DNA of 64,000 nucleotides from Escherichia phage AV118: the sequence record OR352948.1, one strand, 5' to 3'. A program made the translations under genes and the position numbers. Below, in pieces: positions 9,743-49,452 of the stretch (positions within the stretch are counted from its first letter, which is position 1; every line of letters begins with the position of its first letter). Under the pieces are notes generated by a model. It ran no database searches. It had not been told where the DNA came from and saw only the letters and a program-made list of their open reading frames with translations.

Positions 9743-10843
9743 TTACGCTGTGAAGATTTTATCCCACATCGCAACAACTGCATCTCGATTATACTTCTTC
9801 CATACTGCTTCAGCACGTTTAACTCGAGCTTCGTATGTGTCAGTGAATTCTAATACAGCTTTTGTGTAAAGCGCAACTACTTCTTTCTTAGGAGTAGAGG
9901 AATCAATTTCTACACGCACAGTATCTGGGTCGTATTCGAATGTCGCATGAGGATAATCCTTAAAAACTAACTGGATTACAGGGACACCTTTAGAGATGGC
10001 TTCAATAGAACTATTCTCTACCGTACCTGTGTCAGGACACGTATTAATAAGTGCTTTAGCTGTTTTAAGACGTTCCATGATTTCACTGTGTGGAGCATCA
10101 ATAATAACAGGATATTTAGCTGGTGGTGCCCATTTACTAGGACAGTATCCTACACCATTTTCGCCTAGTGCTTTAATCGCTTCAAGAGCAACATCAGTAC
10201 GACGCATTTTAGTGTCATAACGTTGGGCACTAATAATCAAATCAGTTGCTGGGAGAACTTCTGGCTTTTCGGTCAAACAAATAACCGGGTAGTCATCATG
10301 TTCAAATAATGGATTTTCACGCCAGTAATCATAATCAATGCTATCAGTAAGAGCTGAAGTCATATGGCAATATTTACGTTCAAATTCACGGAATGCTTTA
10401 GTAGGAGCATAGCTCTTACCACCGTATTTGTGGGTAAGAATAGTTTGTTTCCAAATTTCTACAATACCGCGAGATACAGGCTCAAATGGAGTTGCCATAA
10501 AATTTCTATGAACACTGGATAAACCGGCATCTTTAATTGCGTTAACAGTTAGTTTAGTCGGTTCCATAGTAACAACAAAATCGTATTCATGGATGCCGGC
10601 TAGTTCAACAATCTTACGAGCCATAGTATAACTCATACCTAGACTGAATTTAGTCAGATGACCAACAGGATGATGATTAACTTTCCAGTCACCAAACGTG
10701 TCATTATCAAAGCCGATATAATCAATATCAGCACCGATGGACACAAGATATTTCAACACATTTAAATGTACTGCTTCAAGGCCACCTTGTACACGGTCAG
10801 GATTAAATGGGACTGCACGAGATGGGATAAACATAACTTTCAT
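9743..10843 (-). CDS. GT-B fold glycosyltransferase (GT4-like, 366 aa); candidate DNA hydroxymethylcytosine glycosyltransferase
   Basis: N-terminal MKVMFIPSRAVPFNP..GGLE and C-terminal ENSSIEAISKGVPVI motifs typical of GT-B/GT4 enzymes; AAGG Shine-Dalgarno; sits between rIIA and 39. Confidence 0.6.
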   Translation of the reverse strand: MKVMFIPSRAVPFNPDRVQGGLEAVHLNVLKYLVSIGADIDYIGFDNDTFGDWKVNHHPVGHLTKFSLGMSYTMARKIVELAGIHEYDFVVTMEPTKLTVNAIKDAGLSSVHRNFMATPFEPVSRGIVEIWKQTILTHKYGGKSYAPTKAFREFERKYCHMTSALTDSIDYDYWRENPLFEHDDYPVICLTEKPEVLPATDLIISAQRYDTKMRRTDVALEAIKALGENGVGYCPSKWAPPAKYPVIIDAPHSEIMERLKTAKALINTCPDTGTVENSSIEAISKGVPVIQLVFKDYPHATFEYDPDTVRVEIDSSTPKKEVVALYTKAVLEFTDTYEARVKRAEAVWKKYNRDAVVAMWDKIFTA

Positions 10844-23386: not shown

Positions 23387-23908
23387 TCAGTAACCATTAT
23401 CCTGACGTTCAAAGTTGTGTTGGTTTTTCAAGTAGTAAAGTTTAAAGATTTCTTCAGCGGAAAGACCCAAACCTTGGAACATATTCAGAACAAAGTGGAG
23501 AATATCAATCATCTCGAATTTAATTTCAAGCTGGTCTTCAGGAGACAGTTCATCGATACGACGATTACGATATTCAGCATGTTGTGCTTTCCATGGCTTC
23601 CACACAGAGCTGGCAGCTTTTTCACCGTTGGACATACCACCGAGTGAAGTCAGCAGTTCACGGAATTCATCATCAATATAATCTTTCTGATTACGCAGCC
23701 AATCAACAACATCACCGGCAGTAGCCAATTCATCAGGATGTTTGTTATGTTCAGGCTTGTCATTTGCCAGACGAACCTGTAAAGATTTCTGCATATCAAG
23801 CATTACCTGCAGTGGGTCTTTATCTTCGTGAATCAGAGCATTAAAATAAGCTTCTTCTGCTTTATCAACACCAGAAATAAGTTGTGAACATTCGTTAAAG
23901 TGTGCCAT
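23387..23908 (-). CDS. 56: dCTP pyrophosphatase gp56 (MazG-like dCTPase/dUTPase, 173 aa from ATG at 23908)
   Basis: MAHFNEC N-terminus and overall pattern of T4 gp56; position between soc and 61. Confidence 0.7.
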   Translation of the reverse strand: MAHFNECSQLISGVDKAEEAYFNALIHEDKDPLQVMLDMQKSLQVRLANDKPEHNKHPDELATAGDVVDWLRNQKDYIDDEFRELLTSLGGMSNGEKAASSVWKPWKAQHAEYRNRRIDELSPEDQLEIKFEMIDILHFVLNMFQGLGLSAEEIFKLYYLKNQHNFERQDNGY

Positions 23909-31776: not shown

Positions 31777-32325
31777 TTAACGAGCCCATTTGATGATTTC
31801 TGTAATCAAATCATTACGTTCGCTTGCATTAAATCCTATAACTTTGTTAGCACCATCATGATTAAGTAATTGATACGTTTGGATTTCGTTATGAATTGCA
31901 AACTCTTCAAAATGTGAAATGACTGTATTAAAACCGAATGAAGACAAAGTAATAAGGTCGTCTTCAAAACTTTCAGTCATTTCGTTACGTGTTAAAATAA
32001 TTGTGAACACATCATGGTTTTGGCAAAGACGAATATAATCCTGTTCATAAACGTCAAGAACCGAGTCCGCATCTTGTCGAATACGTCCGTAAACCCAGTT
32101 ACTAATATATCCACGGTCTAACAGATAAATCTTAGTAGGGTCTAAATAATTCAACATCGTTTCGAAACAGCCAACTTCATTTCGAGACTTAACATCGAAA
32201 CGTCCATCAACTGTTCGTTTAGGGAAATCAATCTTTACATATCTTTCACTAATTTCCATTATGTCATTAATGAAAGTTGTTTTACCAGCATTATCCGGTC
32301 CATCTACTAAAATAATTTTAGCCAT
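31777..32325 (-). CDS. P-loop NTPase, nucleoside/nucleotide-kinase-like (182 aa), in the beta-glucosyltransferase slot
   Basis: Walker A VDGPDNAGKTT near N-terminus; TAATG coupled to upstream 299-aa gene. Confidence 0.5.
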   Translation of the reverse strand: MAKIILVDGPDNAGKTTFINDIMEISERYVKIDFPKRTVDGRFDVKSRNEVGCFETMLNYLDPTKIYLLDRGYISNWVYGRIRQDADSVLDVYEQDYIRLCQNHDVFTIILTRNEMTESFEDDLITLSSFGFNTVISHFEEFAIHNEIQTYQLLNHDGANKVIGFNASERNDLITEIIKWAR

Positions 32326-32326
32326 T

Positions 32327-33226
32327 TTATTCCTCGATTACGACATCTTCATATTTAGGTATATTATATGGTGAAGAAATTAAAGCATTAAAGTAGATGA
32401 ACTCACCAAGACCTGGATGAAATACTTCTTCAGGATTTTCGAAATATTGAATCTTCGGACGTCCTTTAAGAATTTGATAGTACTCGGTTTTAGTTGGTTT
32501 AAAAATTCGAATCAACGCTTCTTCAGGATACTTATTTCTGTCAAAGCTATTATTTGGATCTGTTATATAAAGCGGTTGACCTAATTGAATTGCGCATTCA
32601 ACAACTTGTTCAAAACGATAGCATGGGTCACTAATTCGAAATGGATGAAAAATACCATCTAGATTAATAGGAGCCAAATCACCTACAAGACGCTGCATGA
32701 TGGAAGGACGTATAACTTTCTGCGTTACGATAATCTTATTACCATCTGCACCTGCGTTAACCAGCACTTCTTTTTGACGTTCATTCAACACAGTTGTTTG
32801 GATTGAACGATTAACCGACAATATGTCGGTTTTTAAGAATTCGTCAATATAAAAACGTGGTTTATTAGGGTCTGCGGTGATATTGAAATTGAATTCTACA
32901 TCAAAAGCGCCGTCATATCCAGTGATATCTGTGATTAGAAAATCACAATCATAATAAGCAATTAATGAATCAACCACAAATTCATTTTCAGACCAGAAAT
33001 ATTTACGAGTGTTATACGCGTTATCTTTATACCATAATGGAACAAACTTAAATTCTGGAAAAAGACGTTCGCATTCTTTAATATCAGATGCATTACGTGG
33101 ATATGTAATCACATCACCCGGATTAGCACGGTGCAAATGAAGTTGGAAGTTGCCATCCTTAAGGATAGCATACTGTCCAGTTTCATAAGACCGCATACTC
33201 AAGATAGGTACGCGGAAAATAGCCAT
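32327..33226 (-). CDS. Unknown protein (299 aa) in the beta-glucosyltransferase slot; candidate hmC-modifying transferase
   Basis: Translationally coupled to gene 42 (TAATG); no motif recognised by eye. Confidence 0.4.
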   Translation of the reverse strand: MAIFRVPILSMRSYETGQYAILKDGNFQLHLHRANPGDVITYPRNASDIKECERLFPEFKFVPLWYKDNAYNTRKYFWSENEFVVDSLIAYYDCDFLITDITGYDGAFDVEFNFNITADPNKPRFYIDEFLKTDILSVNRSIQTTVLNERQKEVLVNAGADGNKIIVTQKVIRPSIMQRLVGDLAPINLDGIFHPFRISDPCYRFEQVVECAIQLGQPLYITDPNNSFDRNKYPEEALIRIFKPTKTEYYQILKGRPKIQYFENPEEVFHPGLGEFIYFNALISSPYNIPKYEDVVIEE

Positions 33227-33942
33227 TAGTCAAGGAATCCTTTAACATAATCAAAATCACGTTCAAACACATGGGCACTTACCATGGTATGAGTATAATC
33301 ACCAACTTCTACACCACATTCGTTAGCGATATAATGAAGTAATTTTCCTTGGAGATAAAAATCCAACTGCATAACAACAGCACAGTTCTGAGAACGCATA
33401 TGACAGTGGGTATAAAGCTTACCATCACGAATATAATAAGTCACTGAGTCAGTACATGGATATTCAAGCGTTTCGTCTGAATCAAGCAAAGCCTGATCAG
33501 AACTTTCTAGAATTTGGAACACAACTCTTCGGGAGTTAGGCTTCTCTTTAAGTTCTTTTAGAAGAGCTGGTAATTGAGCCGCAATGCGAGGACCATAGAA
33601 AGTGTTGAAGTTCGCCGGCAAAACATCTGATTTTGGTTTAGAAATAAATTTAGCGACATTAGGATATGCCTTAAACGCTTCTTCTGCATTGGTACCACCA
33701 GAAATCATAAACTTCCAGAAGTCTTCGGCATATTCATAAGAGATGCGGTTAATACGTGGGTCGGTCATTTTGAATGTCGATGGAGTGTCAACAACTACTG
33801 TCATAGACCCAATTTCATTACAACGTCCAATACGAGAATCAGTTACGAATTCCGGGTTTTCTAAAATTTCACGATTGACTGCTTTAAATGCGGCTTGAAA
33901 ATCTGCGGCTTTGATATATTTCATTGTGTTATGTTTTCCCAT
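33226..33942 (-). CDS. 42: dCMP hydroxymethylase gp42 (thymidylate synthase fold, 238 aa)
   Basis: Catalytic Cys in YPCTD; MRSQN...D with Asp at the position that is Asn in thymidylate synthase (cytosine-specific). Confidence 0.8.
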   Translation of the reverse strand: MGKHNTMKYIKAADFQAAFKAVNREILENPEFVTDSRIGRCNEIGSMTVVVDTPSTFKMTDPRINRISYEYAEDFWKFMISGGTNAEEAFKAYPNVAKFISKPKSDVLPANFNTFYGPRIAAQLPALLKELKEKPNSRRVVFQILESSDQALLDSDETLEYPCTDSVTYYIRDGKLYTHCHMRSQNCAVVMQLDFYLQGKLLHYIANECGVEVGDYTHTMVSAHVFERDFDYVKGFLD

Positions 33943-33961
33943 GTTTACCTCAATACAATTT

Positions 33962-33985
33962 ATTATATACTCAATTTGTAAAGCT
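33962..33985 (-). promoter_or_regulatory. Candidate MotA-dependent middle promoter for gene 42 (AGCTTTA box, 11 nt, TATAAT)
   Basis: Box/spacing resembles T4 middle promoters. Confidence 0.3.
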
Positions 33986-34124
33986 TATTTGAATTTCTTG
34001 ACAATGTTGATATAACGTAAAGCTTCAGCATCGATACTTCCAAGAACACTATGAAGAAATGCGTCAGCGTAGTATTCCAATTGAACAGGTTTCTTTAATC
34101 ACTTTAGCCGCTTTAGTTTTAAAC

Positions 34125-34144
34125 AGGCCCATCAGGGCCTTTTT
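34125..34144. terminator. Hairpin aggccc-atca-gggcct followed by T5 on plus strand (terminator-like)
   Basis: Read directly; orientation ambiguous. Confidence 0.3.
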
Positions 34145-34221
34145 AAGAATTTGTTCGTTAGTGTTCAGTTTAATAGTCAAAATCTCTTCGTTAAGTTTAT
34201 AATTAAAAGTTTTTCTAGAAA

Positions 34222-35382
34222 TCATTCCGGGTACCTCAAAGCGTCATCAGAGTTAGTTATATCAATAATAGATATAGAGTTTTCTGCTAACCCGTTTTTA
34301 GATAATTGACGTTTATAATATCTTTCACAATATGTACACGTCGTCCCGCAGATTTCATTAGCACAATCGAAATCTGGATGTCTGAACCACCTTTTTTCTA
34401 AAAAGCCATCTAACAAAGAGGTTTCAATATTTACTGTATGTGAAAACTCAGTTTCGTTTTCAAGAGTGAAAATGGTCTCTAAAGGCTTCCACAGTTCTAA
34501 CAAATTACCTTCAAACTTTTCAGAAGCGTATGCTTCAAGAACTTTCAAAATGTAGTCTGTGCTACCTGTACGTCCTGAAACTTTGAATTGAGTGATACCA
34601 ATATCATTATAAAGTTTCAAATCTTGAGGACGAACAAAACGAGTTCTCAACCAGTTAAATGGGTCTGTATCACGAGCTTTAATACAGTGCTGCATAGGAT
34701 ATCCGTTTAAGGATTTAGCATCATCAGCTGTAACATCAGTACTATGGAAAATATAGCAAGAGTCACGATAGCTACAATGTGTTGTATACCCTTTACCAGC
34801 ATTAGAACAGAACTCATTTACAAGAACTTCAAATATTATATTGTTCTTATTGCAAAACTCTGCTGCACGCTTCAGGAAAGAAACTGAACGGTTCTTATGA
34901 ATTCCACAGCAGACCTTTTTGATATTATATTGGTCATGCAAGTATTTGATTTGAGTTACAGCATCGACATGTAGAATTGTTGAAACTTCAATCTCAATGT
35001 CTTTATTGACTTCACGAACAATTTCCATAACAACAGGGTTAGCGATAGTAATACGCCATACGCCTATTGACCAAAGATACTGAACATAATCCTGAATAGC
35101 TTTCTTCTTCCACTCAACTAGTTCTCTTTTTGAACCAGGATTTATCGTGTTGAGTGTATAGTTAAAGCAAATACCTAATTCGTTACAACGTTTAACGTAA
35201 TCTTCTAACATCTTTTTGTCAACGTCAGGAAGCCTAAAATCAGGTCTGGCTGCTACAAAAGCCATTTCTCTTGTAGAGCCGTATACTTCGTTTATCAAGC
35301 TATTAGGATAAGTTTTATTGAGCTCTACGATTTTATCAAGAAGAGCTAAATCAAAATTCGTTCCAATTTTAAAAGTATTCAT
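34222..35382 (-). CDS. Cys-rich enzyme of unknown function (386 aa from ATG at 35382; ORF track GTG start 35397), possible Fe-S / U32-peptidase-like TIM-barrel protein
   Basis: C-terminal CxxxCxxC (CGTTCTYC) plus further Cys pairs; N-terminal VYGS...ARPDF...ELGI.F.YTLNT pattern reminiscent of U32 family. Confidence 0.45.
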   Translation of the reverse strand: MNTFKIGTNFDLALLDKIVELNKTYPNSLINEVYGSTREMAFVAARPDFRLPDVDKKMLEDYVKRCNELGICFNYTLNTINPGSKRELVEWKKKAIQDYVQYLWSIGVWRITIANPVVMEIVREVNKDIEIEVSTILHVDAVTQIKYLHDQYNIKKVCCGIHKNRSVSFLKRAAEFCNKNNIIFEVLVNEFCSNAGKGYTTHCSYRDSCYIFHSTDVTADDAKSLNGYPMQHCIKARDTDPFNWLRTRFVRPQDLKLYNDIGITQFKVSGRTGSTDYILKVLEAYASEKFEGNLLELWKPLETIFTLENETEFSHTVNIETSLLDGFLEKRWFRHPDFDCANEICGTTCTYCERYYKRQLSKNGLAENSISIIDITNSDDALRYPE

Positions 35383-35438
35383 TTTTTTGCATCTCACGTT
35401 AATTGATGCGATGGTTTTTGCAGGTCTTACTTAAATTA

Positions 35439-35840
35439 TTATAGATTCGGTTTATATGATTTAAATGTTTCGAATTCGCCTTTATTCATAAGAGCTTTGA
35501 ATTCGTCAGGACGCATAGCTTTGTCGTCGATAATCCAATCATATACTGGTTTATGTGTTAGCAAATTATGGTACTTCAAACCAATGTTTTCCAAGTTCTG
35601 AATCAGACTTGGGAGAATGTCAATTGCTATACGTCCAGGACCTACTGACTTCATACCGCGAGCAGTGTAAAGCGTTATGGTATGCCCTGCATCATACAGG
35701 GCATTAATGGCAGACACCATTTCGACGTCTGGTTTGAAGTTCACGTAATCACGATTGTTATTCCACTCTGTTATACAATCATCGACATCAAAACAAAGAT
35801 TAAGCATGTTTTCTACACGGTGCATTAGATTCGTTCCCAT
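35439..35840 (-). CDS. HAD-superfamily phosphatase (133 aa), KdsC-like candidate sugar-phosphate phosphatase
   Basis: HAD motif I FDVDD, motif II TARG, Lys, and DD motif (WIIDD). Confidence 0.55.
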   Translation of the reverse strand: MGTNLMHRVENMLNLCFDVDDCITEWNNNRDYVNFKPDVEMVSAINALYDAGHTITLYTARGMKSVGPGRIAIDILPSLIQNLENIGLKYHNLLTHKPVYDWIIDDKAMRPDEFKALMNKGEFETFKSYKPNL

Positions 35841-37510
35841 TGATGAGTGATATCGCCACCGATTGGACGATAGGAAACACCAGTTTCTTTATCAGTTAGT
35901 ACCCATTTACCAGGATTTTTTGTAATCAGAGTAGCCGTTACAGGTTCTGCTACGTCATAACTAATAGAGCCGTCTTGAAGTACACGGCCCATATTACGTA
36001 ATTGCTTAGTCAGAAGTTCCATACCTTTATAATATGCGGCTACCGCTTTAAGTGGATTATTCTTGAAATAACCACCTAATGCAATCCAGATAATTGCCAC
36101 TGCCAAATGATGATACTCGTTAAACGAACTCATCTTTCCATATTTGTAAACTAATGGATTGATGTTAATAGTCACATTACAAGTTGTTTCATCAATAGTA
36201 AACTGTCCCCAGGTCGGATTAGCATTGAATTCATCATAACCTGAAACAGCATAAAGCACTTTAGCTTCATCATACAATTTTGGCCCGTAAATCTTGGTTT
36301 CGCCAAAATATCCACGAGGGTCGATAAACTTGACTTCGCCGTTATCAGTAATCATAGTATTACTGAAGTTCGGGTCACCATGAATAACAGAGTACTGTCC
36401 CTGAGAACGGTTATGATAACGAATAAGGTGTTCTAAAGCTTGTTTCAGCATTGGCTTCAGACGTCCAATCTTAGTGTAGTTCACATGTGTGATTTTACCA
36501 AATGAATCAATCAATGGTTGAATGCTTTCACAACGATCAATAACTTTCGTATAGAATTCTTTAGTGAAATCACGACGAACAGTTTCAGGACTTACAAAAT
36601 AAGTGTCTGTGCTGAATTTCAGTGCATCTAAAATTGCATCAACAATTTGTGGACGAGCAAGACTTGATTTGGATTTAATATATTCAAATGCCGGCTTACC
36701 TTTAATGCGTTCCATTTCAAAGTTATTTTCATTAACAGAAACTAACTGAGGAACTGAATCTGATTTCACTTTCAAATACCACGAAATCTCATCTTTCTGA
36801 AGAGCTCGACCCTGTTCGGTTAATGCGAATTTAGTTACAGTTTCTTCACCAATTTCAACTGCATTAAAACTACGATTAAGTTCACGAACTTCATGAGCCT
36901 TTTCAAGTTTAGGCATATCACCAAGGTCGATGATATTCATAAGCTCTGATTTATTGAATGCGCCACTGTAAAGGAATTCTACGAAATCACGTCCTTTGCA
37001 GTATTCATGAATTTCCTCATCAGTAGAACCCATATAGAATTCCCAGTCTTTGAACTGATAAATTCCTACAACATTACCACCTGTTGAACCTACGTTAGTG
37101 ATATTTTCACCGTCGAAATTATATCGACATTCGTCACCCTTAACATAGATTGCATTAACATTCCAAGACCATGAACCAAAATCGGGAATAATATCACACC
37201 AGTTAACAATTACGTTATGGCCGTCTAAATCTTTGTGTAATTTAGCAAGAGCATAAGCAGAACCATACGCTTCATCAACTGTACGAATAGTCACATTGAA
37301 CCCTTCTTGCTCACAATAAGCTCGAACAGTTTCAGCAAATTTTGAATGAACTACTACAATAATTTCATCTGCGCCAAGGTCAGAATAAATTGTATACAAA
37401 TTGCTCAGAATAGTGTCTTGTTTATAGTTAACAAGCACCTTAGGAATATGATGCGTTATTGGATACAAACGAGTTGCCAGTCCAGCACCAAGAATAACAG
37501 CTTTTTTCAT
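35825..37510 (-). CDS. Bifunctional sugar-1-kinase (APH/choline-kinase fold) / sugar-1-phosphate nucleotidyltransferase (561 aa)
   Basis: N-terminal nucleotidyltransferase motif AVILGAGLATRL; C-terminal kinase Brenner motif HGDPNFSN and FIDPRG; GAGGA Shine-Dalgarno. Confidence 0.65.
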   Translation of the reverse strand: MKKAVILGAGLATRLYPITHHIPKVLVNYKQDTILSNLYTIYSDLGADEIIVVVHSKFAETVRAYCEQEGFNVTIRTVDEAYGSAYALAKLHKDLDGHNVIVNWCDIIPDFGSWSWNVNAIYVKGDECRYNFDGENITNVGSTGGNVVGIYQFKDWEFYMGSTDEEIHEYCKGRDFVEFLYSGAFNKSELMNIIDLGDMPKLEKAHEVRELNRSFNAVEIGEETVTKFALTEQGRALQKDEISWYLKVKSDSVPQLVSVNENNFEMERIKGKPAFEYIKSKSSLARPQIVDAILDALKFSTDTYFVSPETVRRDFTKEFYTKVIDRCESIQPLIDSFGKITHVNYTKIGRLKPMLKQALEHLIRYHNRSQGQYSVIHGDPNFSNTMITDNGEVKFIDPRGYFGETKIYGPKLYDEAKVLYAVSGYDEFNANPTWGQFTIDETTCNVTININPLVYKYGKMSSFNEYHHLAVAIIWIALGGYFKNNPLKAVAAYYKGMELLTKQLRNMGRVLQDGSISYDVAEPVTATLITKNPGKWVLTDKETGVSYRPIGGDITHQWERI

Positions 37511-37551: not shown

Positions 37552-37695
37552 CTAGTTAAAGCATTCATACTTTGCTTGTAGTCCAATCATAATCCATCCA
37601 ATTACAAGTGTTGGAATCATTACCGGAGCCGTTAAGCTCCAGTAGATAGTCATGACAAGCATCAATAGTAAAAGTCCTATTGTTATTGCTTTCAT
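37552..37695 (-). CDS. Small membrane protein (47 aa), below ORF-track threshold
   Basis: ATG at 37695 overlaps stop of SIS gene (ATGA); translation MKAITIGLLLLMLVMTIYWSLTAPVMIPTLVIGWIMIGLQAKYECFN. Confidence 0.35.
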   Translation of the reverse strand: MKAITIGLLLLMLVMTIYWSLTAPVMIPTLVIGWIMIGLQAKYECFN

Positions 37696-38327
37696 TGTTC
37701 GCCTCGTAACATGGCACCTAGTGCACCGCCTGGATGGAACTTAAGGAAATCATTAGAGGTAAATCCACGTTCAGACGAAAGGTTGATAGCAAACGTATCG
37801 ATAAGCGCTAACAACAATGTAGTGGACATTGTCGGAGCTAAAGAGTTCTCGTCAACTTCTACCGCGATACCAGTACAGAACGTATAATCAAAAAGAGCTT
37901 CGTATTCTTGTGGAATGTCAGGGTTACAATGTAACAGAATCTGTTTAACCTGAGGACGAATCATACGAAGATGTTTAGCAACACCTATCATTTCTTCAGT
38001 CTTACCAGAACGACTGATGTGAACTAATACATCATTAGGTGCAATAAATCCTGCGTCACCATGAGAATAATGCCCAGTGTTCAAGTACATACTTGGGATA
38101 CCGAGTGAAGCAAAAGTCTCGGAAGCTTTAGTTGCGATATTAGCGTTCTTACCAACACCTGTAATAATTACCCGGCTTTCATAATTACTAAGTCCAGGGC
38201 GTCGAAGAGTTTCTAGAATAGCGTTATAACGAGCAGGGTTTTGACTAATTACTTTAGCCATAGTGGCAAGAGATGAAGCTTGTTTTACGATTGCGTCAAT
38301 AGCGATAGTGATTGGTGTAGTTTTCAT
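37692..38327 (-). CDS. SIS-domain sugar-phosphate isomerase, arabinose-5-phosphate isomerase (KdsD/GutQ/KpsF)-like (211 aa)
   Basis: SIS motifs GVGKNANIATKASETFASLGIPS...HGDAGF...HISRSGKTEE closely follow the KdsD pattern. Confidence 0.7.
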   Translation of the reverse strand: MKTTPITIAIDAIVKQASSLATMAKVISQNPARYNAILETLRRPGLSNYESRVIITGVGKNANIATKASETFASLGIPSMYLNTGHYSHGDAGFIAPNDVLVHISRSGKTEEMIGVAKHLRMIRPQVKQILLHCNPDIPQEYEALFDYTFCTGIAVEVDENSLAPTMSTTLLLALIDTFAINLSSERGFTSNDFLKFHPGGALGAMLRGEQ

Positions 38328-43134: not shown

Positions 43135-43821
43135 TTAGAAGTCGTGAGTAGAATCGGCTTCCATCGCAATAACATAACTTACTTGAGAGCTTTCAAACTT
43201 GGCTGCAACTTTATCACCAGCTCCCCACAACATTACTTTATAGTTACCTGGCTGGATTTTCATATTAGCCATATTGATTACGAAGTTAAAGTTGTTAGAA
43301 CCATCATAATCGGTAAGAGTCAAAGAATACTTAGGACGAGTTAGTCCTGAATCTTCAACTTTATTATAGCCATTGATAACAATTTTACCATCTTTATTTG
43401 TAATAGCAATTGTATCAATCTGAAGACCACGTGAAACTCGAAGCAATTGTTGAAGGTCTTCAGCTTTAATTTCAGTAATCACAGAAGCTACTGGGAATTG
43501 AATTGGCTTATTAGGAAAAACAATTGTGCTCTTGTCAGCGGCAGGCCAATAAACTGTGGAACGTGTATCTGCAATTTTAATATTGCCATCAGTGTGCATT
43601 GAAATTTCAGCATCATCAGACACTAGACTCAAAATGCTTAAGAAGCTATTCAAATCATAAAGTGCTACGTCAAAATCAATTTCATCAGAGATATTTGCTT
43701 CCGCATAAGTGGTGCCATTAACTGCACGAGTCATAATAAATTTACCTTGACTCAGCAGAATGCCAGAGTTAATAGAAGCGAAGTTTTTCAGAATATTTAC
43801 GGTTTCACGGCTAAGTTTCAT
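43135..43821 (-). CDS. 45: Sliding clamp gp45 (228 aa)
   Basis: Size identical to T4 gp45; MKLS...NFASINSGILL N-terminus. Confidence 0.85.
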   Translation of the reverse strand: MKLSRETVNILKNFASINSGILLSQGKFIMTRAVNGTTYAEANISDEIDFDVALYDLNSFLSILSLVSDDAEISMHTDGNIKIADTRSTVYWPAADKSTIVFPNKPIQFPVASVITEIKAEDLQQLLRVSRGLQIDTIAITNKDGKIVINGYNKVEDSGLTRPKYSLTLTDYDGSNNFNFVINMANMKIQPGNYKVMLWGAGDKVAAKFESSQVSYVIAMEADSTHDF

Positions 43822-44708
43822 TTAGGTTTCCTATTAGCATAATAATTTGTCCAAGACCGGATAGCACCTTGGTATGATTCATCATTAAAACCATGCTGAA
43901 TTGCATGTTTTCTAAATGTAATATAACTTGGTTTTCCTAAAGCAATCCACAATTCCTTTAATTTTTGTTCATGAAATATCCATGTACCTCTAGCTTTAGA
44001 TTTTCTGAATTTATCCTTAAATTCTTTGGTTGCATTTCTTTTCGAAGCTGCGATAGAGGCCTTTGCTCTATTTTCAGGTTTAGACCAATACAATGTTTTA
44101 GATATTTTTATTTTATCTTTAACATTAGGAGAATTCATTATATCTTTAAATTTTAAAGCAAAATCTCTATCGCTAAACATTTTTTTAGAAAGAATAGAAA
44201 CTTTCTCTCTTCGTTCTTTGGTCCAATATGTTTTTTGAAATTCTCTAATTGCGTTTAAATGATTCTCCGACAATTTGCAATTTTTTCTAACACCGACGTA
44301 ATCTTCGTTTATTTCGTTTTTAGAAAGTTTTACTATTTTGCCTGTTTTTAAATTTTTATACGGTGCATATCCTTTAGCTGATATTCTAGACTTCTCGTTA
44401 GCATAAGCCTTATTAAAATATTTTTCATTTGAAACGGCTTTAACATTGAGTTGGAATAGTCTTTCTATTCTTCTAGGGTCTAATGTGGTTTCGCCTAAAA
44501 TTTTTACAGAATATTCGCCTTGGTCTATTAATCTGGTATATAAAGGAGAATACGAGGAATTAACACTACCGGTATATATTTTACCGGTAGAATCTTCAAT
44601 AATATCCTTTCCATTAAAATGACACGAAACTTTAGAACCTATATAATAACACGGGTATTCATTTTTAATCTCACGATTATAAAAGGTTATAAGATATATT
44701 AAATTCAT
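43818..44708 (-). CDS. GIY-YIG (Seg-like) homing endonuclease (296 aa from ATG at 44708)
   Basis: N-terminal LIYLITFYN...YYIGSK GIY-YIG motif; basic C-terminal DNA-binding region; inserted between rpbA and 45; weak Shine-Dalgarno. Confidence 0.55.
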   Translation of the reverse strand: MNLIYLITFYNREIKNEYPCYYIGSKVSCHFNGKDIIEDSTGKIYTGSVNSSYSPLYTRLIDQGEYSVKILGETTLDPRRIERLFQLNVKAVSNEKYFNKAYANEKSRISAKGYAPYKNLKTGKIVKLSKNEINEDYVGVRKNCKLSENHLNAIREFQKTYWTKERREKVSILSKKMFSDRDFALKFKDIMNSPNVKDKIKISKTLYWSKPENRAKASIAASKRNATKEFKDKFRKSKARGTWIFHEQKLKELWIALGKPSYITFRKHAIQHGFNDESYQGAIRSWTNYYANRKPK

Positions 44709-44713
44709 AATTA

Positions 44714-45130
44714 TCAAGCAGCAACCATCTGCTTTTTAATAGTTTCAGGCAGTGATTCAATATATTCTGGAATTTTAGAAGCAACAATTTCGCCAGCTGC
44801 AATTAGTTGTTCGTCGGCATCAACACAGTAGGAATCTTCCAGACGCTCAGAACCGTCTTTATCAAGAACGATTTTTGCGCCAGCTTCAATAGAATCGTTA
44901 TAGTGCTTACGCATCAGATGAATCCACATATCAGATACATCGTTATCAATAAAACCATAAATCATAAAACGAGTTTCTTGTGGCAAAGATTGGAGTTTTT
45001 TAGCACTTGCGTCATCACAATGCAGGACCCATGCTTTACGAACACGATTATGGTTATGTGGGTTAGCGTCAGTACGGATAGAAGTAACTTTCAGATCAGC
45101 AGCAGTGAAACCTTTAGCAGTAGTAAACAT
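44714..45130 (-). CDS. RpbA-like RNA polymerase binding protein (138 aa)
   Basis: Position between 46 and 45 as in T4; size near T4 RpbA. Confidence 0.45.
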   Translation of the reverse strand: MFTTAKGFTAADLKVTSIRTDANPHNHNRVRKAWVLHCDDASAKKLQSLPQETRFMIYGFIDNDVSDMWIHLMRKHYNDSIEAGAKIVLDKDGSERLEDSYCVDADEQLIAAGEIVASKIPEYIESLPETIKKQMVAA

Positions 45131-47554: not shown

Positions 47555-48573
47555 TGTGTTGCCTCAATATAAAGTTCGTTGGAATATTTGACCAGCGCTT
47601 CTCTGTCTTCATCTGAGATATCTGGAATCGCGTCAATATATTCTTTAATGATATCTTGAAGTGATTTAATCTCGATTTCCTGGTCGTCATCAGATTCAAC
47701 ACTGTTATCAACTTTAGAAACCATACGAAGAGAGTGAACTACTTTTTCAAGTTCAGATTCAAACTTAGTCAACTCTGAATCAATTTCTGATACTATAACA
47801 CGTACGGCTAGATTAGTATAATCAGAATAATTGATTTTGCCTTTAAATGGATAAGTGATTCGTCGATGCCATGTTGTTTCATTAGGAATAAATTCCATAC
47901 GTTCAACATCAGTGTCAAATACCCAGAATCCGCGAGGGTCGTTCTCATCACCTGCAGTAAGGGTCCATGGTGTCCCAATATATTTGACGTTAGCAGCTTC
48001 AGAGATTGTGTGGAAGTGGCCAGACCAGACTTGTTTATAGGTCTTTAAGAAATCAGGTTCAAGCCCATGAGACTTCATTCCTTTATAGAAATAGAAGCCA
48101 TTTAATTCCCAGTGCCCAACACAATACGCTGCAGAAGAAGTCTTGATGTGCTCTAAGATTTCACCTGTATTTTCTTCACACATCCATGGAATCAAATCAA
48201 TCAAGCACCCATCAAAATCTACTGTAGTTGGCTTATCATAAATTATTACGTTTTTACGATGGCTCAATAATTCTTGAACAGTGTTAGGATATAAGGTTGT
48301 TTTATAAAAGAGATCATGATTCCCAAGTATTGTATGGACTGTTATACCAGCGGCTTCCACCAAATCAAACATTTCACGCGTGAATTCCATACAACGTTGT
48401 GTGGTGTGGGCTCTGACATCAAATGTATCACCATATTGAATCCATGTTGTTATTCCATTTGCGACGGAATAGTCGATCATTTGTCTGAAACCGTCACGTT
48501 GTATAGCTTGAATCCAATCGTCGTCTTTTTTGACGCCTAGATGCAAATCGCCTATATTAAGTATTTTCATCAC
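47551..48573 (-). CDS. 47: Recombination endonuclease subunit gp47 (Mre11/SbcD-like phosphoesterase, 340 aa)
   Basis: Calcineurin-like motifs DLHLG, GDTFD, GNHD, GHFH. Confidence 0.9.
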   Translation of the reverse strand: MMKILNIGDLHLGVKKDDDWIQAIQRDGFRQMIDYSVANGITTWIQYGDTFDVRAHTTQRCMEFTREMFDLVEAAGITVHTILGNHDLFYKTTLYPNTVQELLSHRKNVIIYDKPTTVDFDGCLIDLIPWMCEENTGEILEHIKTSSAAYCVGHWELNGFYFYKGMKSHGLEPDFLKTYKQVWSGHFHTISEAANVKYIGTPWTLTAGDENDPRGFWVFDTDVERMEFIPNETTWHRRITYPFKGKINYSDYTNLAVRVIVSEIDSELTKFESELEKVVHSLRMVSKVDNSVESDDDQEIEIKSLQDIIKEYIDAIPDISDEDREALVKYSNELYIEATQ

Positions 48574-49373
48574 ATACCTTTAAATTTGGAGTAAATTATA
48601 TTGTGGTACGATATATCAGGAAACCCTTTATCGACCGCAATTTTTCTAAACTTATTAGGACTTATTTTACCACACTCCATCCATAATGCAAACAACTCGT
48701 CAAAATGCTCATATGCTGGACCTCGACGAGCTTTTGACACAGCAGCACTTATGCGAGCCTTTTTCTCAGAATCAAGGTTTTTAAGAGAATTACTTATTTT
48801 ATTTTTTTGCTCTTCTGAATTGAAGGTGCCTTTTTCCCAGCCTAAAGGTTGGCTTCCTTCATGGAACATTTTTCTTGAAGTTCCATTGGTATACCATATT
48901 TTACCTTTATTGTGCCCTGATGCTTTATATTTTGGTGAGCGTCCTTTTATAAATCCTTCAGGTATAGTAGGAGCAAATGTTTGTTCAAGGGTTTCTGGGT
49001 TATACGAATGTATGTTATTTTTGGCGTTATGAGACCCATATAATGGGTGATTTTTACCAGAAACATCACGCCCAAAGAAACCAGTTGGTGATGCCAAAGA
49101 CATATTCATATACAAAGGATTTTTATGAGCTTGAACTCTAATTTGATAGTCCTTTTCCACCTTTAAAGCTTCTTCTCGTGTTGGATGTTCGCTCAAAATA
49201 CAAGAATCAAACAACGTAGGATTTTCTAAAAGTTCTTTGTTATAAATTTTACGATAGGCTTTAGATAGAATAGTACCATGATACCCGTTTAAATGTTTTT
49301 CTAAGCTAGTCGAACCTATGTAAAAAGGTGGTAGCTTATCTCCAGAATAAATTGTCAAATAGACTATAAACAT
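48570..49373 (-). CDS. GIY-YIG (Seg-like) homing endonuclease with NUMOD3-type repeats (267 aa from ATG at 49373)
   Basis: YLTIYSGDKLPPFYIGST GIY-YIG motif; AAAGGAG Shine-Dalgarno; own promoter 49398-49427. Confidence 0.6.
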   Translation of the reverse strand: MFIVYLTIYSGDKLPPFYIGSTSLEKHLNGYHGTILSKAYRKIYNKELLENPTLFDSCILSEHPTREEALKVEKDYQIRVQAHKNPLYMNMSLASPTGFFGRDVSGKNHPLYGSHNAKNNIHSYNPETLEQTFAPTIPEGFIKGRSPKYKASGHNKGKIWYTNGTSRKMFHEGSQPLGWEKGTFNSEEQKNKISNSLKNLDSEKKARISAAVSKARRGPAYEHFDELFALWMECGKISPNKFRKIAVDKGFPDISYHNIIYSKFKGM

Positions 49374-49397
49374 ATATTTCTCCTTTGATTTAAGGAG

Positions 49398-49427
49398 ATT
49401 ATAACACGCCTTTAATGAAGCGTAAAC
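49398..49427 (-). promoter_or_regulatory. T4-early-type promoter (GTTTAC-N18-TATAAT) driving the Seg-like gene
   Basis: Read on minus strand. Confidence 0.45.
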
Positions 49428-49452
49428 AAAAAAAGGAAGCACTAGGCTTCCT
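49428..49452. terminator. Bidirectional hairpin terminator (aggaagc-actag-gcttcct) flanked by A7 and T4 runs
   Basis: Read directly. Confidence 0.45.

Follow-up and report, generated by a model that had tools for sequence, protein, structure and literature searches.

The closest described systems are those of RB69-type phages, whose DNA contains arabinosyl-5-hydroxycytosine, with the sugar ether-linked to the C5 oxygen and no hydroxymethyl group (PMC13326640). RB69 gp48, together with the phage's dNMP kinase, gives rise to 5hodC in E. coli DNA; 18O is taken up from 18O2, FMN co-purifies with the enzyme and, in the same assay, the 5hodC product is clearly resolved from the 5hmdC made by T4 gp42 (PMC13326640). 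Nucleosides from RB69 DNA yield a base fragment of m/z 128.05, and NMR places Araf at C5-O (PMC13326640). RB69-type enzymes thereby differ from T4 gp42 both in cofactor (flavin and O2 rather than methylene-tetrahydrofolate and water) and in product (5-OH rather than 5-CH2OH; PMC13326640). The flavin is FMN or a related flavin according to Lee et al., whereas riboflavin and FAD are given in the title of PDB 9iqc, 'Monooxygenase dependent on riboflavin with dCMP and FAD'; the title of PDB 9iqu is 'phage HY126 dCMP hydroxylase-AfhB with substrate dCMP'. Replacement of Asp by Asn at thymidylate synthase (ThyA) position 169 (D169N) is the published signature of 5-hydroxy-dCMP synthases, and predicts activity in nine further homologues (PMC13326640). 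In the view held in 2018, RB69 possessed hmC enzymes and no glucosyltransferases, and its DNA was taken to contain arabinosyl-hmC (PMC6024577); this view has since been revised.

We analysed a stretch of 64,000 nucleotides (the window) from an RB69-like phage (Mosigvirus) whose closest relative, AV109, is 98.9% identical across 52 kb of the window. Because the enzyme is to all appearances the already described dCMP 5-hydroxylase of RB69-like phages, the case is an ordinary one. The system was described in papers of 2025-26, in which experiments on RB69 gp48 and on phage HY126 AfhB demonstrated formation of 5-hydroxy-dCMP with flavin and O2, and to which the finding of the ORF itself adds nothing further; for its product, its consumption of 18O2, its binding of flavin and the dCMP/FAD crystal structures, we rely on the literature on 97-98% identical proteins.

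The hydroxylase gene and its diagnostic residues

33226..33942, minus strand: predicted dCMP 5-hydroxylase (5-hydroxy-dCMP synthase), 238 aa, orthologue of RB69 gp48 and HY126 AfhB

The ORF begins with ATG, with GAGG 5 nt before it, and its TAA stop shares bases with the ATG of the following gene (TAATG). It occupies the place of gp42, between gene 43 and uvsX, and genes of this type are often labelled 'dCMP hydroxymethylase' in GenBank records. Pfam Thymidylat_synt (PF00303) matches the product with E=2.3e-15 and 56.9 bits (cut-off 24.3). The protein is 98.3% identical to RB69 gp48 (NP_861738), from which nothing distinguishes it beyond four substitutions (window residue first: A17T, T56S, N85D and V107A). 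Phage HY126 AfhB (PDB 9iqc, 9iqu) is about 97% identical over the full length (E=2e-160 to 9iqc), and a structure model of the window protein superposes on 9iqc with a TM-score of 0.92. Both RB69 gp48 and HY126 AfhB (PDB 9iqc, 9iqu, 9ir2) bear the D169N, N177D and L143E signature seen in the window protein, and their neighbouring genes, gene order and host genus all match those of the window phage. The ORF therefore very probably encodes a flavin-dependent dCMP 5-hydroxylase, in which flavin would replace folate on the thymidylate-synthase fold. This assignment, made from sequence, depends on near-identity to characterized enzymes.

The protein contains the motifs YPCTD (as LEYPC163TD) and MRSQNCAVVMQLD, the latter numbered MR183S184QN186CAVVMQLD194, with an Asp ten residues past RS. 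Alignment with E. coli ThyA and T4 gp42 equates Cys163 with ThyA C146 and T4 C148, Arg183 and Ser184 with ThyA R166 and S167, and Asp194 with ThyA N177 and T4 D179. Hence, the cytosine-specific Asp named in a preliminary description of this DNA is confirmed, as is its reading of the two motifs. Since the catalytic Cys and the cytosine-selecting Asp are common to both families, however, they do not discriminate between a hydroxylase and gp42. The discriminating position is that of ThyA D169, a pterin-binding residue. Asp is present there in ThyA and in three T4-type gp42 proteins (T4, 44RR2.8t and Mineola), whereas the window protein (Asn186) and all six other RB69-type sequences aligned have Asn, so that MRSQN in the window protein stands against MRSND in T4 gp42. 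Glu160 occupies the ThyA L143 position. We scored this signature on the best 120 database clusters (53-99% identity), 116 of which were scorable: Asn at the D169 position together with Asp at the N177 position was found in all 116, and Glu at the L143 position in 114.

The window protein resembles T4 gp42 in its fold, its catalytic Cys, the Asp that selects cytosine and the acidic residue three before the Cys, as well as in genomic position, dCMP substrate and a gp56 dCTPase partner. T4 gp42 (dCMP hydroxymethylase, EC 2.1.2.8; PDB 1B5E) differs in having Asp171 at the ThyA D169 position and the Trp of an 'IW' motif that is absent from the window protein; a conserved LPxNFNTFYGPRI insert is found on the window protein's side only. 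Identity to T4 gp42 is 25% over 218 residues, and 24-25% for the three T4-type proteins as a set, compared with 69-98% for six of the seven RB69-type sequences, the most distant of which (Rhizobium phage AF3) stands at 34%. Judged by these alignments, the window protein is not an orthologue of T4 gp42.

The best non-orthologous structural match is MilA, the CMP 5-hydroxymethylase of mildiomycin biosynthesis (PDB 5b6d, 5jnh; Foldseek E=5e-17, TMq 0.80, 24% identity). MilA is likewise a thymidylate-synthase homologue specific for a cytosine nucleotide, but it acts on a ribonucleotide, is folate-dependent and hydroxymethylating, and is about 80 residues longer. E. coli ThyA (about 20-22% identity) has in common with the window protein the fold, Cys146, Arg166, Ser167 and the phosphate-binding RR pair (R138/R139 in the window protein); it differs at N177 (Asp in the window protein), D169 (Asn) and L143 (Glu), and its C-terminal 40 or so residues, including the tail that closes over folate, are missing from the window protein.

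The arabinosylation gene set and a proposed pathway

The RB69 gp45-gp55 cluster is complete in the window, which also holds gp3 and gp28 homologues, all at 95-99.7% identity. Besides the hydroxylase gene and a gene of the peptidase-U32 family described below, the set comprises:

9743..10843, minus strand: second GT-B glycosyltransferase, 95% identical to RB69 gp3/ORF003c, 'beta-arabinosyltransferase 2'
about 23387..23908, minus strand: dCTPase/dUTPase gp56, 72% identical to T4 gp56 and 97% to RB69 gp28; Pfam dUTPase_2
31777..32325, minus strand: P-loop thymidylate-kinase-like nucleotide kinase, 99.5% identical to RB69 gp45; phrog_761 'thymidylate kinase', E=1.9e-45
32327..33226, minus strand: GT-B fold glycosyltransferase, 299 aa, equivalent to RB69 gp46:47, 'arabinosyltransferase 1'; in the T4 beta-gt slot
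33988..34225, minus strand: RB69 gp49 homologue (79 aa in full), broken in the window by an apparent +1 A frameshift at an A-run near 34085
35439..35840, minus strand: HAD-type sugar phosphatase, 98% identical to RB69 gp51, HY126 AfhF-like; TIGR01689, E=1.9e-13
35825..37510, minus strand: bifunctional nucleotidyltransferase and kinase in one ORF; RB69 gp52:53, HY126 AfhE-like
37692..38327, minus strand: arabinose-5-phosphate isomerase, 96.7% identical to RB69 gp55; SIS domain

The phosphatase match, TIGR01689, is a capsule biosynthesis phosphatase family; enzymes of the RB69 gp51 type convert arabinofuranose 1,5-bisphosphate into the 1-phosphate (PMC13326640). The bifunctional protein is 98-99.7% identical to RB69 gp53 and gp52, has an N-terminal Pfam NTP_transferase domain and, in its C-terminal part, weak matches to kinase families; the RB69 gp52:53-type enzyme makes UDP-arabinofuranose (PMC13326640). 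Synteny of the hydroxylase with sugar, glycosyltransferase and dCTPase genes recurs in Klebsiella, Acinetobacter and Shewanella phages. A scan of the cluster for sigma-70 promoters and terminators was uninformative, as counts were at or under the shuffle expectation.

The preliminary description was right that the gp56 dCTPase is present. Its statement that alpha- and beta-glucosyltransferases are missing holds in that tblastn with T4 alpha-gt and beta-gt returned no homologue from either the window (threshold, E below 1) or the complete AV109 genome (E<=1), and the glycosyltransferase at 32327-33226 has no detectable homology to either. The beta-gt slot is nevertheless occupied, by that same 299-aa GT-B enzyme, while the alpha-gt slot (gene 47 to gene 55) holds a homing endonuclease. 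Similarly, the alternative decoration of hmC that it proposed survives as regards the sugar, which the arabinose gene set indicates is not glucose, but the base would be 5-hydroxycytosine. Structures are available for a HY126 homologue of the 9743..10843 glycosyltransferase (9iqz, 9ir0; E=2.8e-242 to 9iqz).

Taken with the published chemistry, these genes suggest the following pathway. Cys163 presumably attacks C6 of dCMP, like all thymidylate-synthase-type enzymes, and Asp194 would select cytosine over uracil. Reduced flavin and O2 would then place a hydroxyl directly on C5, instead of the folate-derived methylene. By draining the dCTP pool, the gp56 dCTPase would both keep unmodified C out of phage DNA and supply dCMP to the hydroxylase. 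Phosphorylation of 5ho-dCMP to the triphosphate would fall to the phage's dNMP kinase and the host's NDP kinase, after which 5-hydroxycytosine would enter DNA via the polymerase. One to two arabinofuranoses would be placed on the 5-hydroxyl by the 32327-33226 GT-B enzyme and the gp3 homologue (9743-10843), in an order that we infer for the source phage. The donor, UDP-arabinofuranose, would be supplied by the isomerase, the kinase/uridylyltransferase and the phosphatase, whose genes lie just upstream. The DNA of the source phage would in this way carry arabinosyl-5-hydroxycytosine.

Weighing other assignments

The preliminary description had called the product a gp42 dCMP hydroxymethylase and expected hmC in the DNA, reasoning as in the 2018 view of RB69. 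On such an assignment the enzyme would use methylene-tetrahydrofolate to make 5-hydroxymethyl-dCMP, and the DNA would contain hmC bearing a sugar other than glucose. The fold, the catalytic Cys, the Asp at the N177 position and the acidic residue at the L143 position would all fit, as would the location from gene 43 to uvsX, the label in many GenBank records and the arabinosyl-hmC assumed in the 2018 paper (PMC6024577). However, identity to T4 gp42 is just 25%, Asn replaces Asp169 and the 'IW' motif has lost its Trp. Moreover, the 98%-identical RB69 enzyme makes 5hodC, separate from the 5hmdC of T4 gp42, and the base fragment of RB69 DNA is m/z 128, not 142 (PMC13326640); structures of the 97%-identical protein are titled with FAD and dCMP. 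A T4-type hydroxymethylase is thus already largely refuted, and we regard it as very unlikely. Nor does a second T4-type gp42 lie elsewhere: tblastn with T4 gp42 matches only the 33226..33942-type ORF, whether run on the window or on the entire AV109 genome. Several database records annotate the gene as a thymidylate synthase, and Pfam, NCBIfam and PHROG alike give it that name. A dUMP-converting enzyme of this kind, ordinary or spare, is nevertheless barely credible: NCBIfam thymidylate synthase scores all fall far under their cut-offs (the best being 68 bits against 174.6), the residue at the N177 position is the dCMP-selecting Asp, and the AV109 genome carries a separate, genuine td gene that a homing-endonuclease gene divides into two pieces, with 46% and 44% identity to E. 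coli ThyA.

A flavin-dependent dCMP 5-hydroxylase could still be impaired in this genome, or its pathway could be, leaving the DNA less modified than that of RB69, or differently modified. Two features raise this concern. Residue 85 is Asn in the window protein and Asp ('GGTD') in 113 of the 116 family clusters, and the frameshift in the gp49 homologue, which is intact in AV109, RB69 and JK45, leaves an ORF of 53 aa (34064-34225). Asn85 appears to be tolerated, though, since it also occurs in the largest Mosigvirus cluster (157 member sequences), and it is found in 59 phage records at least 99% identical; all of these are propagated phages. The catalytic and signature residues are all intact, and there are arabinosyl-5hoC phages with no gene in the gp49 slot, such as Acinetobacter phage Apostate and QL01. 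Impairment is highly improbable.

The distinction matters beyond this phage. Hundreds of T4-like phage genomes, therapeutic candidates included, call this gene 'dCMP hydroxymethylase' or 'thymidylate synthase', and a single residue, at the ThyA 169 position, splits the two chemistries (RS-x-N versus RS-x-D). It therefore predicts which restriction, type IV, glycosylase and CRISPR systems are resisted or triggered, and also whether standard hmC-based tools work on the phage DNA.

A U32-family gene and a possible prephenate connection

34222..35397, minus strand: peptidase-U32-family protein, 99% identical to RB69 gp50; Pfam Peptidase_U32, E=7.5e-11

The sole new angle lies in the association of this gene, two ORFs upstream of the hydroxylase gene, with chorismate mutase and DAHP synthase genes. 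In RNA, C5 hydroxylation of pyrimidines is carried out by prephenate-dependent enzymes (RlhA and TrhP) and by an O2-dependent one (TrhO; PMC13602947). TrhP and TrhO form such a pair for ho5U in tRNA. The phage locus resembles the TrhP/TrhO pair in that a U32 protein with conserved cysteines sits beside an O2-dependent pyrimidine C5 hydroxylase, and in that chorismate mutase and DAHP synthase accompany the U32 gene in related phages. Unlike TrhP and RlhA, however, the U32 protein would act on a deoxynucleotide or on DNA. Among its cysteines, ten show at least 95% conservation across 121 sequences, those of C345-x4-C-x3-C-x2-C357 among them. The protein is a candidate Fe-S, prephenate-dependent hydroxylase. 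Its matches to the TrhP, RlhA and UbiU profiles are very weak (6-15 bits). Because all profile matches are at or below 15 bits, we did not assign it to any of the E. coli paralogues RlhA, TrhP, UbiU or UbiV; a search of PDB sequences returned no match.

Across 221 phage genomes, with Enterobacterales and Shewanella as hosts, the U32 protein keeps at least 80% identity. No Acinetobacter phage is among the U32 matches listed, and the gene is absent from the one Acinetobacter cluster examined, that of phage Apostate; Acinetobacter is a strict aerobe. AroQ chorismate mutase, the enzyme that forms prephenate, is found in 51 phage records and, in the listed records with annotated features, adjoins the U32 gene, the hydroxylase gene or both. 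In PWKp16 it lies exactly between the two. An AroFGH-type DAHP synthase is present in 212 phage genomes, and its spread over host genera, compared by genus counts, mirrors that of U32. The co-occurrence of U32 with chorismate mutase and DAHP synthase suggests a prephenate-dependent, O2-independent route of hydroxylation. We tentatively propose, as a possibility rather than an expectation, that the U32 gene provides a second way to 5-hydroxycytosine that would permit anaerobic DNA modification in gut phages, under conditions in which the flavin/O2 enzyme cannot function; if real, the association would account for the persistence of an O2-requiring DNA modification in the anoxic gut.

Lee et al. 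name the U32 protein only as a 'sugar or heterocycle reductase', and the literature searched, which did not extend to He et al. 2026 (Nat Chem Biol), yielded no link between U32, prephenate and phage DNA. As AroQ occupies the gp49 slot in PWKp16 and its relatives, we also asked whether gp49 is a diverged chorismate mutase. This found no support (BLASTP E=8; hhalign probability 0.2%, a weak negative given the shallow profiles), and gp49 of Mosigvirus has no match in Pfam or NCBIfam. Metagenomic homologues of the U32 protein (50-58% identity) lie beside genes for dCMP deaminase, nucleotide kinases, NT5C and deoxyribosyltransferase.

Relationship of the hydroxylase to known enzymes

The ORF described earlier as dCMP hydroxymethylase (gp42) matches Pfam Thymidylat_synt (E=2.3e-15, 56.9 bits; cut-off 24.3). 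It shares 25% identity with T4 gp42 versus 98.3% with RB69 gp48, and the gene is not a gp42 orthologue. A PDB sequence search retrieved 9iqc and 9ir2 (E=2e-160) and 9iqu (E=4e-157), both 9iqc, entitled 'Monooxygenase dependent on riboflavin with dCMP and FAD', and 9iqu, entitled 'phage HY126 dCMP hydroxylase-AfhB with substrate dCMP', having been released on 2025-07-16. The AlphaFold model of the protein (pLDDT 85) superimposes on these two structures with TM-scores of 0.92 and 0.87, respectively. The next structures were MilA CMP hydroxymethylase (24% identity) and then ordinary thymidylate synthases.

Features of the modification pathway and of the T4 slots
33226..33942, - strand: hydroxylase ORF, 238 aa, ATG start, Pfam Thymidylat_synt
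9743-10843: glycosyltransferase, RB69 gp3/ORF003c homologue
about 23390-23908: gp56 dCTPase, 72% to T4 gp56, 97% to RB69 gp28
31777-32325: kinase, RB69 gp45 homologue
32327-33226, - strand: 299-aa ORF, RB69 gp47 and gp46 in one reading frame
34222-35397, - strand: U32-family protein, RB69 gp50 homologue
35439-35840: HAD phosphatase, RB69 gp51 homologue, AfhF-like
35825-37510, - strand: nucleotidyltransferase-kinase fusion, RB69 gp52:53 homologue, AfhE-like
37692-38327: arabinose-5-phosphate isomerase, RB69 gp55 homologue
43818-44717, - strand: homing endonuclease in the gene 45/rpbA interval, phrog_7504, E=2e-16
48570-49442, - strand: homing endonuclease in the T4 alpha-gt slot, phrog_10820, E=1e-75; weak GIY-YIG match

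A GAGG lies 5 nt 5' of the hydroxylase ATG. At the other end, the TAA stop shares a base with the start codon of the following gene (TAATG). Just upstream of the hydroxylase ATG, on the minus strand at about 33960-33985, AAGCTTTAC is followed after 11 nt by TATAAT and then by the GAGG, an arrangement that resembles a T4 MotA-box middle promoter with a Shine-Dalgarno site. A generic sigma-70 scan did not pick up the AAGCTTTAC/TATAAT stretch.

The Asn186 signature and the chemistry of near-identical enzymes

Both motifs quoted in the preliminary description, YPCTD and the stretch from RS to Asp, are present in the ORF. Alignment with E. coli ThyA and T4 gp42 places Cys163 at ThyA C146 (T4 C148), R183/S184 at ThyA R166/S167 and Glu160 at ThyA L143 (T4 D145). 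The specificity position holds no Asn: Asp194, exactly 10 residues past Ser184, aligns with ThyA N177 and T4 D179, and is thus the cytosine-specific Asp that had been proposed. The decisive residue, however, is Asn186, eight positions upstream of Asp194 in the same motif (MRSQN186), which occupies the ThyA D169 position.

In an alignment of 11 sequences, Asn is found there in all seven RB69-type proteins, from phages of E. coli, Klebsiella, Acinetobacter, Shewanella and Rhizobium, whereas ThyA and the gp42 proteins of T4, 44RR2.8t and Mineola (MRSND) have Asp. The RB69-type group also lacks the Trp of the 'IW' motif found in ThyA and gp42 as well as the ThyA C-terminal tail, and has a conserved LPxNFNTFYGPRI segment. 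ThyA D169, W80 and the C terminus are folate contacts; their loss in the RB69-type group fits a change of cofactor. A wider survey took the 120 best clusters of a 5.8-billion-protein search (53-99% identity), 116 of them scorable. Every scorable cluster combines Asn at the D169 position with Asp at the N177 position, and 114 have Glu at the L143 position. Residue 85 ('GGTN') is Asp in 113 of the 116; the Asn of the window is common to the largest Mosigvirus cluster (157 members) and two more, one from Proteus phage phiP4-3.

The chemistry of such enzymes is published. In RB69 and Acinetobacter phage DLP3 every C is exchanged for mono- to tri-arabinosylated 5-hydroxycytosine (Lee et al., NAR 2026, PMC13326640); the modified base gives a fragment of m/z 128.05, where hmC would give 142.06, and by NMR the alpha-Araf sits on the oxygen at C5. 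According to the same study, RB69 gp48 with a phage dNMP kinase yields 5hodC in E. coli DNA, its product separates chromatographically from the 5hmdC of T4 gp42 and gains 2 Da from 18O2, and Asn at the ThyA D169 position is a diagnostic signature, validated in nine further homologues. FMN co-purifies with RB69 gp48 (PMC13326640), whereas the 9iqc title names riboflavin and FAD. As told in PMC13326640, He et al. (Nat Chem Biol 2026) provide a flavin-bound HY126 crystal structure and in-vitro reconstitution. Hydroxymethylation to hmC, as first proposed for the window, is therefore not upheld, given the near-identity to an enzyme that yields 5hodC and the Asn186 signature. That proposal is in essence the 2018 view of RB69 (PMC6024577), revised in 2025-26. 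Judged by its sequence, the window hydroxylase is very probably another member of this already characterised system.

Modification genes and gene order

The dCTPase gp56 is present as proposed. T4 a-gt and b-gt gave no tblastn match below E=1 in the window, and the whole genome of AV109 likewise yielded no match at E<=1; the alternative decoration that had been anticipated is also supported, as a probable non-glucose sugar. For the gp3/ORF003c homologue, the structure of an HY126 counterpart has been solved (9iqz/9ir0, E=2.8e-242). In the slots of the two homing endonucleases, no ORF is annotated in RB69.

The 299-aa ORF and the nucleotidyltransferase-kinase fusion are each unbroken in the window but appear as gp46/47 and gp52/53 in the RB69 reference record. 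The gp46/gp47 split is a sequencing error according to a published statement, and the unbroken ORFs support this origin for both splits.

Over the 6 kb around the hydroxylase, many RB69-like coliphages, for the most part Mosigvirus, match at 98-99% identity. AV109 is the best match, collinear with the window at 98.9% identity across 52 kb. Gene 43, the cluster and then uvsX, 40 and 41 follow in the same order as in T4, but imm, 42, beta-gt and segA, which lie between gene 43 and uvsX in T4, are replaced by nine different genes. Beyond the window, AV109 (L005 46910-48786) carries a genuine td thymidylate synthase gene, split by a homing-endonuclease gene, with frd beside it. Phages of this kind thus possess a pair of enzymes with the thymidylate-synthase fold that differ in cofactor.

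The U32 gene and a possible link to prephenate

Among phages, the U32 protein occurs in 221 records, always at 80% identity or higher, from hosts in the Enterobacterales and Shewanella. No Acinetobacter phage is among the U32 matches listed, and the gene is absent from the cluster of Acinetobacter phage Apostate. Ten Cys of the protein show 95% or higher conservation, among them those of a C-terminal Cx4Cx3Cx2C. RlhA and TrhP are also U32-family proteins. RlhA is an Fe-S enzyme that forms ho5C in rRNA with prephenate as hydroxyl donor, and for ho5U the prephenate-dependent TrhP is the counterpart of the O2-dependent TrhO (PMC13602947). Lee et al. name the phage protein solely as a 'sugar or heterocycle reductase' (PMC13326640).

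Related loci
L012 4620-6022
L009 6151-7541
L005 (AV109) 35303-36295
L016
L017

The U32 gene has an AroQ chorismate mutase (Pfam CM_2, 39.5 bits) as companion in 51 phages; the mutase lies exactly between U32 and the hydroxylase in PWKp16, and overlaps one or both in the annotated records among the matches listed. For an AroFGH DAHP synthase (430 bits), present in 212 phages, the spread over host genera mirrors that of U32, and all three genes occur together in phages MY02, Kpn BM7, PEi20 and EcS1. Metagenomic U32 homologues (50-58% identity) lie amid genes for dCMP deaminase, thymidylate kinase, UDG, NT5C, dNK and deoxyribosyltransferase. These associations suggest a hydroxylation step, so far unrecognised, that would depend on prephenate and not on O2. 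It is a coherent inference that U32 is a candidate cytosine hydroxylase of this kind, which would serve as a back-up to the O2-requiring enzyme when the host is anoxic. E. coli is also the host of Dhakavirus QL01, which has no U32 gene, and Mosigviruses have an apparently unrelated 79-aa ORF in the chorismate mutase slot.

That small ORF, in the window the homologue of RB69 gp49 (33988-34225, - strand; 79 aa in RB69, phrog_8601), is cut to 53 aa by a +1 frameshift, an extra A near 34085, which could be a sequencing error or mark a real pseudogene; the site reads AAAGAAACC in the window versus AAAGAACC in AV109, RB69 and JK45.
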